Of a stretch of 64,000 nt of DNA, positions 3,180 to 20,341 are shown piece after piece. The notes under the pieces were generated by a model. It was given only the letters and a program-made list of their open reading frames with translations. It was not told the origin of the DNA and ran no database searches. The DNA lies in the NCBI GenBank assembly GCA_964607485.1, contig CAZSKP010000012.1, positions 1 to 64,000 of the forward strand, written 5' to 3'. How positions within the stretch are numbered: the first letter of the stretch is position 1; every line of letters begins with the position of its first letter. Source of the stretch: an uncultured bacterium. Lineage in GTDB: Bacteria > Abyssobacteria > SURF-5. Made by a program: the position numbers and the translations under genes.

Positions 3180-3230
3180 ATTTCAACAAAGCACAAAAAT
3201 CGATAGCTTGGAAATAACGGAGGCTGTTTG

Positions 3231-4475
3231 ATGGCAAGACCGGCCAACGAGGGCAACGCCAAGGGATTGAGCGTATTCGAGAAGTACCTGTCGGTATGGG
3301 TGGTGTGCTGCATCGTCGCGGGCATCCTGCTCGGCAAGGTCGCGCCTGAGCTGGCGCGATGGCTCGACGGAATCGCAATTTACGTGGGCGGCGCGCCGGT
3401 GGTTTCGATCCCGATCGCGGTCTGCCTGTTCTTCATGATGTATCCCATCATGGTCAAGATCGACTTCGCCGAGGTCGTCAAGGCGGGCAAGAGCGTCAAG
3501 CCGGTCGGCCTCACGCTGTTCGTGAACTGGGCGGTCAAGCCTTTCAGCATGTACGCGATTTCGCTCCTGTTTCTCGGGGTGGTGTTCAGGGGCCTGATAG
3601 GCGCGGAGGCCGTGGACTACGTCAAGATGCCGTTCGGCCTCGACCTGCCCGTGGGGGCGATGTACGGCGCGGGGAAAGTGGTGTTGGTGGGGAGCGTCAA
3701 GATGCTGCAGGTGCCCCTGTGGCGCAGCTACCTTGCCGGGTGCATCCTCCTCGGCATTGCTCCATGCACGGCGATGGTGCTCGTGTGGGGGTACCTCGCC
3801 CGCGGGAACGATGGCCACACGCTCGTCATGGTCGCCATCAATTCTCTCACGATGCTGGTGCTTTACGGCGTGCTCGGCGGCTTTCTGCTGGGAGTAGGCC
3901 GCCTGCCCGTGCCGTGGCAGGCGTTGTTTCTTTCCATCGGCATCTATGTCGCCCTGCCGCTCGTGGTGGGGTATCTGTCGAGAAGATGGATTATCGCCGC
4001 CAAAGGCGAGGCGTGGTTCAAACAGAAATTTCTCCATCTCCTCACCCCTATCACGATTGTCGCGCTGCTCATCACGCTGGTGCTCCTGTTCTCGTTCAAG
4101 GGCGACGTAATCCTTTCCAACCCGCTGACGATTCTGTGGATCGCCGTGCCGCTGTTCATCCAGACAAACGTGATTTTTCTGCTCGGATATGGCCTGTCGA
4201 AGGTACTGAACCTGTCGTACGAGGACGCGGCCCCGAGCGCGATGATAGGCGCGTCGAACCACTTCGAGGTCGCCATAGCCACGGCCACGATGCTGTTCGG
4301 CCTTTCGAGCGGCGCGGCGCTCGCGACGGTGGTCGGCGTGCTGATAGAGGTTCCCGTGATGCTGATGCTCGTCGGGTTCTGCAAGCGCACGGCGGGCTGG
4401 TTCAGAGCCCCGGCGGGGGCAACCGAGGCGGCCGAGCTGCAACTGAGCGGGTCGGCGCCGATGGAGGAACGATGA
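3231..4475 (+). CDS. acr3: ACR3-family arsenite efflux permease
   Basis: [56 protein letters not shown]. Confidence 0.95.
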
Positions 4476-15569: not shown

Positions 15570-16796
15570 ATGGAAACGAGTACTCCCTCCGTGCAGAAGG
15601 CCGCCGGGCTGAAGCAGATGTTTATCATCGGAAGCGCCTGGCTGGGGATGAGCGCCTTCTTTGCCTTCGACATGTCTTCCATGCCGCTGTTCTTCAACGC
15701 CCGCATCGAGCAGAAATGGATAGTGGGATTGATACTGGGCATGATGGGCGGTTTCGGAATAGTCATGGCCCCCGTGGTGGGAATAATGAGCGACAAGATA
15801 CGCCACCGCCTGGGTCGCCGCAGACCTCTCATGATAGTCGGACTGCCCCTGTTCGTGCTCGTTCTGGTGGGGACTCAATACATCCCGTGGGTGTGGCTCA
15901 TAGCGCTCGTCTGGCCGCTGGCATATTTCTTCCATCTAATCATTGAGCGGCCGTGGAGCGCGCTGATTCCCGACCTCTTTCCGCGAGACAAACGGGCCAC
16001 CGCCAACGGCGTAGCCCAGTTGATGGGAGGCTGCGGCAACCTGCTGTTCTTTGTGGTTGGCGCGTATCTGTGGGCGAGGAACGAGGAGGCCACGTTCTAC
16101 CTGGTGGCCGCCGTGTATGCGGTCGGTATCCTGACCGTTCTGTTCGGAATCAAGGAAAAGCCCACGCATCTGGTTGAGCCTCGAGGGGTGACGGGCGAGA
16201 AGCTGCGCGATTACGTCAAGGGGCTGCGCAAGCACAAGGCGCTCCTGCGCTTCACCTTCGCCCAACTGTTCTGGCAGACGGGATTCCAGGGGGTGCTGCC
16301 GTGGCTCACATCCTTCGGCACAAAGGACATTGGGATGAGCATGGAATTGTCATTCATGCTGCTCGCATTGGCGGTGGCAGTACAAATCGCCTTCTCGATT
16401 CCCGTGGGAATGCTGGCCGACAGGGTCGGGCACAAGCTTGTGACCAGCGCCGGGCTGGTGATTTTCGCAGGCATTAATGTTTGGATTGTTTTCGTCCACT
16501 CGGTTCCAATCCTGTTTGTGATGATGGGGCTCGTGGCGCTGGGCTTCTGCATTGTCATGGTGGTTCCCTATGCCATGGTCGTGAACCTGATTCCGGATGA
16601 CAGGATGGCCGAGTTCATCGGCATCGCATGGATTTCGATATACGTATCCGTATTTCTGGGGCGGTTGCTCACGGGGTTCCTGATAGATTCGTTCGGCAGC
16701 TATCGCTCCATCTTCGTGTTTGCAGCCATCTGCCACACGGTGGGCCTGCTTCTCTTGCAGGGAGTGGAGGAGAAGAGAGAGCAGGAAAAGGGGTGA
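15570..16796 (+). CDS. MFS transporter (sugar/glycoside-like)
   Basis: About 12 TM helices, GIMSDKIRHRLGRRRP and GMLADRVGHK loops. Confidence 0.9.
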   Translation: METSTPSVQKAAGLKQMFIIGSAWLGMSAFFAFDMSSMPLFFNARIEQKWIVGLILGMMGGFGIVMAPVVGIMSDKIRHRLGRRRPLMIVGLPLFVLVLVGTQYIPWVWLIALVWPLAYFFHLIIERPWSALIPDLFPRDKRATANGVAQLMGGCGNLLFFVVGAYLWARNEEATFYLVAAVYAVGILTVLFGIKEKPTHLVEPRGVTGEKLRDYVKGLRKHKALLRFTFAQLFWQTGFQGVLPWLTSFGTKDIGMSMELSFMLLALAVAVQIAFSIPVGMLADRVGHKLVTSAGLVIFAGINVWIVFVHSVPILFVMMGLVALGFCIVMVVPYAMVVNLIPDDRMAEFIGIAWISIYVSVFLGRLLTGFLIDSFGSYRSIFVFAAICHTVGLLLLQGVEEKREQEKG

Positions 16797-16896
16797 TATC
16801 TTGAACTATAAGGTTTATGTGGTTACACTTCTTCCTCAGTCTCAAATGAATTTCAAAACCCTATTATTCAACGGCCTGTTGCCCAAATGATTCAGA

Positions 16897-16994
16897 GTCA
16901 TTGCGAGGGAGAGTCATAGACTCGACCGAAGCAATCTCGGAGGCGTTTTCCTATGCCATCGGGATTGCTTCGTCGCTTTGCTCCTCGCAATGAC
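16897..16994. repeat. GTCATTGCGAGG...CCTCGCAATGAC palindromic repeat element
   Basis: Terminal inverted repeats; similar copy at 57056-57169. Confidence 0.8.
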
Positions 16995-17397
16995 GAGGCC
17001 GGGGAACGTTTCTTGGTGAGGAATCATTTGCGCAACACGCCACCAAGATCTGACCCCAGCGGGGCGCAAAAAAAACATCGCGCCGCCGCTCCCTTACCTA
17101 TCATTTTGTCCTGTCTTTCCCTTCTCAACGTTAATAAAATAGGAACGCGGCGCGATGTCGTAAACGCTCGGGAAAGTTTGTTTGAATCATAGCATTGGCA
17201 TTTTCCGTGCCATTCCCGGAAAACTCGTTCAGGCAAGGGCACTGCTAGCGCGTTTGGTCAAAAGAGTCGGGTGTATTCCGTTCATTCGCATGTCCGTTCA
17301 AGAGTTAACGACCGTCCGATAATAAGAGCGAGGTTCTTGTAGCAGGCACAAGAAGTTTATCAAATCGACAAGCCTGCTCCTGGGGTCGATCTCACCG

Positions 17398-17436
17398 AAA
17401 AAAAAGAAAGGTCCCCGCCCTCCGGAGCGAGGACCT
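17398..17436 (-). terminator. Rho-independent terminator closing the radical SAM/peptide operon
   Basis: 12-bp stem AGGTCCTCGCTC/GGGCGGGGACCT (two G-U pairs), loop CGGA, then TTCTTTTTTTT. Confidence 0.85.
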
Positions 17437-17457
17437 CTCCTCGGCCTCATCGCCTTG

Positions 17458-17520
17458 TCAGCACGAGGCCTTGCACTTGCAGGTTCCGCCGACCTTACGG
17501 GTCAACTTGCGGATCTTCAC
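17458..17520 (-). CDS. 20-aa Cys-rich peptide MKIRKLTRKVGGTCKCKASC, candidate RiPP precursor
   Basis: GTG...TGA ORF; RBS GGAGGAGGTG just upstream; starts 24 bp after the radical SAM stop; followed by a terminator. Confidence 0.8.
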   Translation of the reverse strand: MKIRKLTRKVGGTCKCKASC

Positions 17521-17544
17521 TGCTGACCACCTCCTCCGAGAGGT

Positions 17545-18708
17545 TCAGCGCGGCAACCCGTTTGCCGCACACATTACGGGATCTCTCCCGAACTTGTCGC
17601 CCTCAGCCTGCTCGGCCCTGTATCTGCAGCCTCCCCTGCATTGCTTGAGCATCTCGCAATCGCAGCGGAGTTCGTCAATCCGTATCCGGGGCACGTTTCG
17701 CCAGCCGGCGGCCAGCCCGTCGGCGATGACACCCGACGGAGAATCTGCATAAAACCCGCATTTACAAATGGTTCCGTCCGCCATCACAGCGCACAGATGC
17801 GCGCCGCAGGCCCAGTCGGAATCGGCGGAATGGTGGATGCCGCCGCCGAAGGCTCGGCCCAGGAGCGGCCCTGCGTCCTCGATGCCGACCTCGAGCGGGC
17901 TGCCCCGCCAGCGTCCCGCTTGGGAGGGCACGTCGATGTTCCACTCTTTCGCTCCGACACCCCTCACTATCTTCTCCAACTCGTCAAAATCCGCGACGTT
18001 CGCCGCGTGCACCATCGAGGCCACGGACACGTCGATTCCCGATGCGGCGACGTTCTCGATTCCCCGCAACGCCTTCCGATATGTGCCGGGCCCCCTCAGC
18101 GCGTCATGCGAAGGCCCCACGCCGTCGAGGCTTATCTGCACCTCCTGCGCGCGCAGGCGCTTTACCGTATCAGGGTAGGCGAGCGTCGTCCCGTTTGAAA
18201 GAATCACGGTGCGAAACGAAAACTTTTCGAAAAGCTCGTTGAGCTCCCAAAATCGGGGATGCAACAGCGGTTCGCCGCCCGAGACGAGCAGACGCAGCCC
18301 CTGCAGCTCGTCGAATTCCTCCATCACGCGCGCGATTTGTTCGACCGACAGGTCGAGCGGCTCGACATCCCCGAGGAAACAGTGGGCGCACTTGAGGTTG
18401 CAGCGCGTCGTGATGTGGAGCAGCAGGTAGCGAAGGGAGGGAATCGGGCTCTGCACGGCGCTTCTTCGGGGAACATGTTCTGAGACGCGCGCGAATATCC
18501 CCTCTTCGAAACAATAGTCGAGGAACTCCGTGTCAGCACCATCAAGCCGGAGCTCGTCCATTCGGACGGGCAGGCTCCCGACGAAGTCGCCCGCCCGGCG
18601 GTCGAGCTCGTAGAGCTCGTCGCGCGCCCTATTGTAAACGCACGGCGTTTCAAGCAGCCTCAGAGAACATTCCGGGCTAAGTGCCAGATACGTCGGAGCG
18701 GATTGCAT
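17545..18708 (-). CDS. Radical SAM/SPASM protein with an N-terminal RRE (PqqD-like) region; candidate peptide maturase
   Basis: CNLKCAHC, SGGEPLL, QISLDG, C-terminal CGAHLC...CKC...CDCEMLKQCRGGC...DPVMC; N-terminal VYNRARDELYELD. Confidence 0.9.
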   Translation of the reverse strand: MQSAPTYLALSPECSLRLLETPCVYNRARDELYELDRRAGDFVGSLPVRMDELRLDGADTEFLDYCFEEGIFARVSEHVPRRSAVQSPIPSLRYLLLHITTRCNLKCAHCFLGDVEPLDLSVEQIARVMEEFDELQGLRLLVSGGEPLLHPRFWELNELFEKFSFRTVILSNGTTLAYPDTVKRLRAQEVQISLDGVGPSHDALRGPGTYRKALRGIENVAASGIDVSVASMVHAANVADFDELEKIVRGVGAKEWNIDVPSQAGRWRGSPLEVGIEDAGPLLGRAFGGGIHHSADSDWACGAHLCAVMADGTICKCGFYADSPSGVIADGLAAGWRNVPRIRIDELRCDCEMLKQCRGGCRYRAEQAEGDKFGRDPVMCAANGLPR

Positions 18709-18913
18709 CCACAACTTCCTCAACAGTGATGACCTTCCTGTCGAGCAGAAGCTTGATGAGATAGAACGCGCCGCACGCTATCTCCTCATCTTCGCCCTCC
18801 TTATAAAATTCACAATCCCTGCAGATGAAGTCGGTCAGGCCTCTCTCCGTCTTCAGGCAGTCGGGATTATCGAGAAATTTCTGTGCATTTTTGAGGATGT
18901 TAGGAAAAGACAT
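18677..18913 (-). CDS. 78-aa four-Cys protein (C-x11-C-x2-C-x12-C), possibly metal/Fe-S binding
   Basis: ATG 18913 after AAGGGA; 3' end overlaps the radical SAM start. Confidence 0.7.
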   Translation of the reverse strand: MSFPNILKNAQKFLDNPDCLKTERGLTDFICRDCEFYKEGEDEEIACGAFYLIKLLLDRKVITVEEVVDAIRSDVSGT

Positions 18914-19017
18914 TTTGTGTTCCCTTATTGTTTGGAAGGATTTCCGCCCGCGTATACCCCCGAAGAGATTCAGTCCAATTTTATCACCGAAATCCCAACG
19001 TGTCCAACGCGGCGGGC

Positions 19018-19057
19018 AAAAAAGAACTCCCGCCCGCGTTGCGGCCGCGGGCGGGAG
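19018..19057 (-). terminator. Rho-independent terminator after the acyl-CoA dehydrogenases
   Basis: CTCCCGCCCGCG/CGCGGGCGGGAG stem followed by TTCTTTTTT on the minus strand. Confidence 0.8.
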
Positions 19058-19084
19058 ACTGAGAGGCAAACGGAGTGGTGAGTC

Positions 19085-20341
<1,257 letters not shown>

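Follow-up and report, generated by a model that had tools for sequence, protein, structure and literature searches.

A conserved three-gene module of a 20-codon three-cysteine peptide, a radical SAM/SPASM enzyme and a small cysteine protein in an uncultured Abyssobacteria bacterium and its relatives

The DNA analyzed here (the “window”) is a stretch of 64,000 nucleotides from an uncultured bacterium (GTDB lineage Bacteria; Abyssobacteria; SURF-5; assembly GCA_964607485.1, contig CAZSKP010000012.1, positions 1 to 64,000). Its minus strand holds a self-contained module of three genes, conserved in many anaerobic bacteria and some archaea, that encodes a small cysteine protein (designated the “partner”), a radical S-adenosylmethionine (SAM) enzyme with a SPASM-type C-terminus (the “enzyme”) and a peptide of only 20 codons. 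We consider it probable, though not by a wide measure, that the module is a radical-SAM-modified peptide family in which the peptide is the substrate of the enzyme. Given that it is, one or more thioether crosslinks would be the most likely product, which by analogy with known systems we regard as a roughly even bet. The peptide family is new and undescribed; it works like the SCIFF/CteB-type and SkfB-type systems, and it fails every SCIFF test. The features that make up the module are as follows.

17458-17520, minus strand: 20-codon peptide gene MKIRKLTRKVGGTCKCKASC plus stop, presumed substrate (GTG start at 17520, TGA stop ending at 17458)
17528-17537, minus strand: strong Shine-Dalgarno (SD) site GGAGGAGGTG of the peptide gene, 7 nt ahead of the start
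17550-17568, minus strand: 7-bp RNA hairpin over the last enzyme codons, just 5′ of the peptide ribosome site (minimum-free-energy fold)
17547-17545, minus strand: enzyme stop codon
17545-18708, minus strand: radical SAM/SPASM enzyme gene, 387 aa, with an RRE-like N-terminal domain (RRE, recognition element of peptides that ribosomes make and that are modified after translation, or RiPPs); ATG at 18708, and the database gene call P0001 is likewise 387 aa
18723, minus strand: alternative enzyme start, TTG
18677-18913, minus strand: gene for the 78-aa cysteine protein (partner), an open reading frame (ORF)

The partner gene overlaps the enzyme gene, read from ATG 18708, by 32 nt. A gap of 24 nt separates the enzyme stop from the peptide start and holds GGAGGAGGTG.

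Copies of the peptide gene collected from other loci were used to assess whether the ORF is coding. The CKC...C core and an SD site recur in 41 of 41 copies, the latter as a GGAGG-type site (imperfect in some) within the 20 nt before the start. In an alignment of 40 copies, M1, C14, K15, C16 and C20 are invariant and I3, K5 and S19 nearly so, and all 40 hold three cysteines in 20 or 21 residues; actinobacterial and archaeal variants carry one more C-terminal residue (G, A or S). The layout throughout is a basic N-terminal half followed by a core of the form [T/L/M]-C-K-C-x-x-S-C. Mean entropies for codon positions one, two and three were 0.81, 0.79 and 1.37, respectively, for 37 copies, with the third position varying most. 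The same copies use Ser19 codons from both families (TCN and AGC), and the stop codon, at a fixed position, is TGA in 13, TAG in 11 and TAA in 13. Amino acids are kept where the DNA differs, from bacteria to archaea. Third-position variation, two serine codon families and interchanging stops are expected of a coding sequence and not of an RNA element, and judged by this pattern of substitution the 20-codon ORF is a conserved coding gene, far beyond chance. No NCBIfam family matches the peptide at E≤1.

The peptide and the enzyme occur together. Within the taxonomic family of the window, the peptide lies beside the enzyme at six of eight loci, and the other two meet contig ends. Besides the window, the ORF recurs behind the enzyme gene in L002, L003, L004, L006 and L007. 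L005 ends 178 nt past the enzyme gene, and L008 ends at a contig end, with a 3′ fragment of the enzyme gene followed by the peptide on another contig. To cover a wider range, a scan by enzyme alignment was performed with one genome per species and gave 80 loci, 42 of them orthologous (L021-L062) at 37-50% identity. By their record titles, the 42 represent Nitrospirota, Thermoleophilia and other Actinomycetota, Rokuibacteriota, Dehalococcoidia and several Desulfobacterota families, and among archaea Archaeoglobus, Geoglobus and a Methanobacteriota archaeon. At 34 of the 42, the flanking sequence analyzed contains the peptide: immediately downstream of the enzyme at 23, upstream at 9 (with gene order peptide, cysteine protein, enzyme), ∼1.6 kb downstream at one and on the opposite strand at one. 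All eight genomes lacking an adjacent peptide encode a copy elsewhere, as does G028. None of 49 loci with a different radical SAM enzyme (L010-L020, L063-L100) has the peptide. Among 41 genomes collected as relatives, the peptide is present in eight of the nine with an enzyme ortholog (the exception, G009, has a locus that meets a contig end) and in none of the 32 without one (E≤0.01). Note that eight of the nine enzyme-carrying genomes are kin, so this count of co-occurrence is not a statistical test.

The reverse scan, in which metagenome contigs were searched with a degenerate DNA pattern for the peptide, returned at least 121 stretches, 80 of them with up to 2 kb of flank. Among the matches listed, an enzyme ortholog lies within 2 kb at 65 of the 80, with the peptide downstream at 53 of these, upstream at 11 and on the opposite strand at one; the other 15 comprise eight stand-alone copies and seven stretches with too little flank. 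Two positions left free by the pattern are nevertheless restricted among the distinct metagenome peptides listed: all 97 have K or R at position 8, and position 13 is T, L, M, I or V only. An earlier, sequence-only reading of the window had staked its proposal on conservation of the ORF beside homologs of the maturase, and this is borne out by the copies near the enzyme, by those elsewhere in the same genomes and by the peptide-first scan. One short contig (L039) carries two identical peptide genes (1758-1817 and 3201-3260), 1.4 kb apart and with near-identical upstream sequence. A link to dissimilatory sulfite reduction was considered and rejected: dsrA (TIGR02064) exceeds its cut-off in only three of nine module genomes, and also does so in two genomes without the module and not in the genome of the window.

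Additional copies of the peptide gene stand apart from any enzyme gene. A genome-wide profile search located a second copy in the genome of the window, MKIRKLTKEVSGTCKCKSSC, at G000 contig C39:31693-31752 (locus L101 1498-1560, minus strand). This copy is preceded by an SD site of its own and followed by a hairpin. Its neighbors are a DUF5619 gene on one side and a photolyase gene on the other, and in a related genome (L107) the stand-alone copy likewise has a DUF5619 gene next to it. Related genomes hold one or two stand-alone copies each, and that of G028 has a terminator of its own and, as a promoter-like pair, TTGACA/TATAAAT. Pfam, applied to 48 neighbors of 23 stand-alone copies, gave no copper genes. 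Extra stand-alone genes, each provided with an SD site and followed by a hairpin, fit a substrate that is consumed. A 7-9 bp hairpin also lies on the 5′ side of the SD site in the stand-alone copies L101, L107 and L113, and its predicted stem-loop is shaped like that of the window; in all, the hairpin appears in four of five minimum-free-energy folds. Because these copies keep the hairpin where it has no coding role, it may be an mRNA processing or stabilizing element. In four Nitrospirota loci (L164, L238, L239 and L245) a gene for a TPR-repeat protein of 465-599 aa comes after a stand-alone peptide gene, on the strand of the latter; these genomes are perhaps kin, so the arrangement may be mere synteny.

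The enzyme has the architecture of a peptide maturase. Its only Pfam match is the radical SAM core (PF04055, 73 bits). The cysteines of the CX3CX2C motif (C103, C107 and C110) are invariant in 30 homologs, as are seven C-terminal cysteines in the arrangement C301-x10-G312-x4-C317, C349-x-C351-x5-C357-x3-C361 and C380, which we take to be a SPASM motif whose second block is CxC instead of CxxC. NCBIfam gave 75 partial matches, none near its cut-off; the best was NirJ (95 bits versus a cut-off of 515), and neither MftC (TIGR03962, 90.6 versus 265) nor PqqE (TIGR02109, 53.6 versus 381.35) came near the required score. An AlphaFold model of the enzyme (mean predicted local distance difference test score, or pLDDT, 91.8) was compared with solved structures, and the nearest were the peptide maturases SkfB, SuiB and CteB. 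The matches are given with their Z scores.

SkfB, Z 26.0: enzyme model residues 13-375 (sequence match E 1e-22)
SuiB, Z 25.8: enzyme model residues 7-385 to chain residues 1-439
CteB, Z 23.1: enzyme model residues 90-385
anSME, Z 22.8: enzyme model residues 91-386
PqqE, Z 19.9: enzyme model residues 88-387

The N-terminal domain of about 90 residues, with predicted strands in 7-34 and helices in 37-68, falls inside the full-length alignments to SuiB and SkfB. Since these alignments cover it, the predicted fold supports assigning this domain as RRE-like and peptide-binding. With the CX3CX2C motif, the seven invariant cysteines and the full-length alignment of the predicted fold, the radical SAM-SPASM architecture proposed from sequence stands, its RRE being a predicted one. 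Within the RRE-like domain, C66 (18511-18513) is invariant, C14 (18667-18669) nearly so, and C23 (18640-18642) is found in the consensus only. These cysteines, together with the three invariant ones in each of the peptide and the partner, may form a shared metal or cluster site.

The partner is the third member of the module. Its conserved motif is C-x2-C-x-F-Y ... C-G, with C32, C35, F37, Y38 and C48 (window numbering) invariant. The sequence-only reading had described a small protein with four cysteines; a small cysteine protein is indeed present, but only three of its cysteines are conserved, C19 not being among them. The partner lies beside the enzyme in L002-L008, and a hidden Markov model (HMM) of the family matched at 27 of the 42 wider orthologous loci and at none of 49 control loci. 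At the 65 enzyme-bearing metagenome loci, again among the matches listed, it was present at 40. Nitrospirota and Desulfobacterota have a two-domain form of ∼120 aa, often on the opposite strand. The partner frame runs without a stop into the enzyme frame at two genome loci (L040 and L044) and, among the metagenome matches listed, at six more (L146, L151, L152, L153, L162 and L188). Read-through of the frames at these eight loci provides a gene-fusion argument for physical association of the two proteins.

The partner belongs to no Pfam or NCBIfam family. It is annotated as “hypothetical” almost everywhere, and two sources label homologs “Fe-S-cluster containing” or “predicted metal-binding”. 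The predicted structure is all-helical (pLDDT 79); a wide comparison with the PDB yielded no fold match (best Z 4.2), and its structural look-alikes in the atlas are unnamed clusters. At 50% identity the family falls into about 200 clusters, and at least one of these is a false positive. P0271, a protein of 1225 aa that matched the partner profile, was rejected as a CAP-domain repeat protein. In one Nitrospiraceae lineage (L047 2367-3821, minus strand; P0342), the two-domain partner is found at the C-terminal end of a 474-aa protein, which also bears receiver, PAS and HisKA_3 domains but lacks an ATPase domain.

To determine which other genes accompany the module, all ORFs of at least 60 aa at 51 loci were clustered. 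Only the enzyme and the partner form widely shared families. One cluster spanning 29 loci appears to reflect frame overlap inside the enzyme gene, and the next real cluster, rubrerythrin, is confined to eight Nitrospirota loci. No peptidase, exporter or tailoring enzyme (PqqB/C/F; MftD/E/F) is conserved beside the module in these 51 loci. The sequence-only reading had noted a unit without protease or exporter in the window, and none is conserved around it.

The remaining features of the locus lie outside the three genes.

17403-17442, minus strand: intrinsic terminator closing the three-gene unit, a stem-loop followed by TTTTTTTT
18978-19006, minus strand: promoter-like site, TGGACA, 17 nt, TAAAAT, with a TG extension (10/12; consensus match only)
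19027-19057, minus strand: intrinsic terminator after the acyl-CoA dehydrogenase gene, 12-bp stem with 11 GC pairs, then a T-run
ends at 19085, minus strand: upstream acyl-CoA dehydrogenase gene (Pfam)

The three genes thus occupy ∼1.5 kb between two terminators, and the terminator at 19027-19057, which ends the acyl-CoA dehydrogenase gene, insulates the unit upstream. The mini-ORF, its ribosome binding site, the 24-bp gap and both terminators, all read from the letters alone at the outset, were each located at the positions given for them. By Pfam, the flanking genes are unrelated to the module: two acyl-CoA dehydrogenases, an MFS transporter on the opposite strand, and YjeF_N, LigT and TPP enzyme genes. 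Rfam gave no family in 16000-19500 at E≤0.1. The ∼600 bases from the MFS gene to the unit terminator (16800-17400) hold short ORFs only and likewise no Rfam match at E≤0.1.

Several known systems resemble the module in part. As in the SCIFF/CteB system (Tte1186-type; PDB 5WGG, 5WHY), a cysteine-rich precursor with a basic N-terminal part is encoded beside a radical SAM/SPASM enzyme with an RRE (here a predicted, RRE-like one), the core unit is without a dedicated protease or exporter, and CteB itself is a strong structural match to the enzyme (Z 23.1). However, the peptide has three cysteines in 20 residues where SCIFF has six in ∼45, and the system has an obligatory extra three-Cys partner. 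SCIFF is found mainly in Clostridia, whereas the module ranges over Nitrospirota, Desulfobacterota, Actinomycetota, Rokubacteria, Dehalococcoidia, Hydrogenedentota-like bacteria and Archaeoglobi. A check against the SCIFF HMMs had been suggested with the original proposal, and neither model matches. The precursor model TIGR03973 (cut-off 50 bits) did not match the peptide and had no match anywhere in the genome at E≤10; note that HMMER filters are weak on 20-mers, although the peptide's own 20-position profile still works genome-wide. The maturase model TIGR03974 (cut-off 425 bits) had nine matches in the genome at E≤0.001, none at this locus and none over the cut-off, and was outside the 25 best NCBIfam matches of the enzyme.

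The sporulation killing factor system (SkfA/SkfB) and the streptide system (SuiA/SuiB) provide the best sequence and fold matches, and in both the precursor gene lies beside the enzyme gene. They differ in that identity to the enzyme is only ∼18-20%, and in that SkfA and SuiA are longer, variable and exported and have no three-Cys partner. SkfB carries a twitch in place of a complete SPASM domain, and the bond that SuiB makes is a Lys-Trp C-C bond. PqqA/D/E and MftA/B/C are, like the module, trios in which a very short and highly conserved precursor is joined by a small partner and a radical SAM/SPASM enzyme; extra precursor copies and an intracellular product (for the module, a presumed one) are further shared traits. 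Here the differences are that the enzyme scores far under the PqqE and MftC cut-offs, that it carries its own RRE-like domain, that no tailoring genes are conserved nearby and that the partner is all-helical with three cysteines and has no PqqD match. The core of the peptide is also built on Cys and Lys, whereas PQQ and mycofactocin precursor cores are Glu/Tyr or Val/Tyr.

A further parallel comes from Methanococcus voltae, where, according to PMC13692751, the SPASM enzyme CrpC puts thioethers on CrpA, a cysteine-rich protein encoded by the adjacent gene. As described there, CrpC bears an RRE, acts on a neighboring cysteine-rich gene product and lies outside classical antibiotic RiPP clusters, as is proposed for the enzyme; the differences are that its target CrpA is a large repeat protein and that its own family is TIGR04463 (PMC13692751). 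TIGR04463 is outside the 25 best NCBIfam matches of the enzyme. No published description of the trio was found in full-text searches with the core motif CKCKSSC and its variants or in keyword searches, which left subscription-only papers and the supplements of PMC10288494 outside their reach. Together with the lack of a SCIFF HMM match and of any NCBIfam family reached, this agrees with the initial impression that the system is not a described family.

If the peptide is the substrate, the reaction might proceed as follows. The RRE-like domain would bind the basic half of the peptide, and the radical SAM cluster would cleave SAM to give a 5′-deoxyadenosyl radical that takes a hydrogen from a core residue, the candidates being Thr13, Lys15, residue 17 and Ser19. 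A core cysteine held at a SPASM auxiliary cluster could then capture the carbon radical, resulting in one or more intramolecular thioethers of the sacti- or ranthipeptide type. The partner would be a metal- or Fe-S-binding accessory that forms a complex with the enzyme and either presents the peptide or supplies electrons. The product would probably stay inside the cell, with a conserved housekeeping role in redox, metal or cofactor chemistry, and not be an antibiotic; near-invariance of the 20-mer across domains, additional copies of the precursor gene and the absence of conserved export genes argue for this.

Some observations weigh against a thioether-forming maturase acting on the peptide. 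The top NCBIfam matches of the enzyme are NirJ, AhbD and MftC (∼90-95 bits, over the radical SAM core only), which outscore sactipeptide maturases such as AlbA (58) and StsB (70), so the sequence is no specific pointer to thioether chemistry. The N-terminal domain has no PqqD or RRE match in Pfam at E≤1. A near-invariant 20-mer shared by bacteria and archaea is unusual for crosslinked RiPPs and more like the precursors of PQQ and mycofactocin, and the invariant Lys15 is not known to have a role in thioether RiPPs. The role given to the partner is a guess.

The main rival explanation is that the peptide gives rise to a small cofactor, in the way that PqqA yields PQQ and MftA yields mycofactocin, with the enzyme performing a first crosslink or decarboxylation in CKC...C and unlinked housekeeping enzymes excising or finishing the product. 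The trio of precursor, partner and radical SAM/SPASM enzyme does parallel PqqA/D/E and MftA/B/C, MftC (90.6 bits) is among the best NCBIfam partial matches and PqqE among the PDB matches, and near-invariance across phyla and domains, several stand-alone precursor copies and the absence of a conserved exporter or protease nearby would all be expected. We nevertheless regard this explanation as distinctly unlikely: no tailoring enzymes are conserved beside the module at the 51 loci clustered, the scores for PqqE (53.6 versus 381) and MftC (90.6 versus 265) are far under their cut-offs, and variants ending in G, A or S indicate that a free C-terminal cysteine is not required. That the peptide is a tiny cysteine-ligand subunit or metallochaperone, which binds a metal or Fe-S cluster with the partner while the substrate of the enzyme lies elsewhere, is improbable by our estimate. 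Three invariant cysteines in the peptide, three in the partner and Cys 14, 23 and 66 in the N-terminal domain of the enzyme would suit such a complex, as would the “Fe-S-cluster containing” and “predicted metal-binding” labels given to partner homologs by two sources. Separately transcribed stand-alone copies, however, suit a consumed substrate better than a stoichiometric subunit, and both the architecture of the enzyme and its nearest structures are those of peptide maturases.

A little less probable again is that the partner, as the 78-aa or the ∼120-aa two-domain form, is what the enzyme modifies, in the manner of CrpC on CrpA or of anSME, leaving the 20-mer with a separate role. Installation of thioethers by a SPASM enzyme on the cysteine-rich product of an adjacent gene is reported in PMC13692751, anSME is a structural match (Z 22.8), and the linkage of partner to enzyme is as tight as that of peptide to enzyme. 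Yet at eight loci the partner frame runs into the enzyme N-terminus, as that of an accessory domain typically does (although self-modifying fusions are also known), and a strongly conserved peptide would be left unexplained. Finally, the 20-codon frame might be untranslated and its conservation that of an RNA element, such as a 3′ untranslated region or small RNA, by the enzyme gene. Structured RNA does flank the ORF in the form of the 5′ hairpin and the terminator, but the variation at third positions, the two serine codon families, the three stops interchanging at a fixed position, the SD-like site within 20 nt of the start of collected copies, the lack of an Rfam match at E≤0.1 and the retention of amino acids where DNA is not conserved, from bacteria to archaea, make this very improbable.

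At 20 codons, the peptide gene is missed by annotation pipelines and by RiPP miners that require a called precursor, and as a result the enzyme is labeled just “radical SAM protein” and the partner “hypothetical”. The peptide would rank among the shortest radical-SAM precursors. Because it is near-identical from Hydrogenedentota-like bacteria to Archaeoglobus, a conserved cellular function is suggested over chemical warfare. Work on the module may uncover radical chemistry of Cys and Lys, an accessory fold for metal binding and perhaps a cofactor of anaerobes, each of them new, and with three genes in ∼1.5 kb the system is compact enough to be easily tested. There is a small but real chance that the module makes a third kind of cofactor or carrier derived from a ribosomal peptide, after PQQ and mycofactocin, in this case a Cys/Lys-based redox, sulfur or metal carrier. 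If so, the invariant C-K-C-x3-C core and a new metal-binding partner would serve a housekeeping function in strictly anaerobic Bacteria and Archaea.

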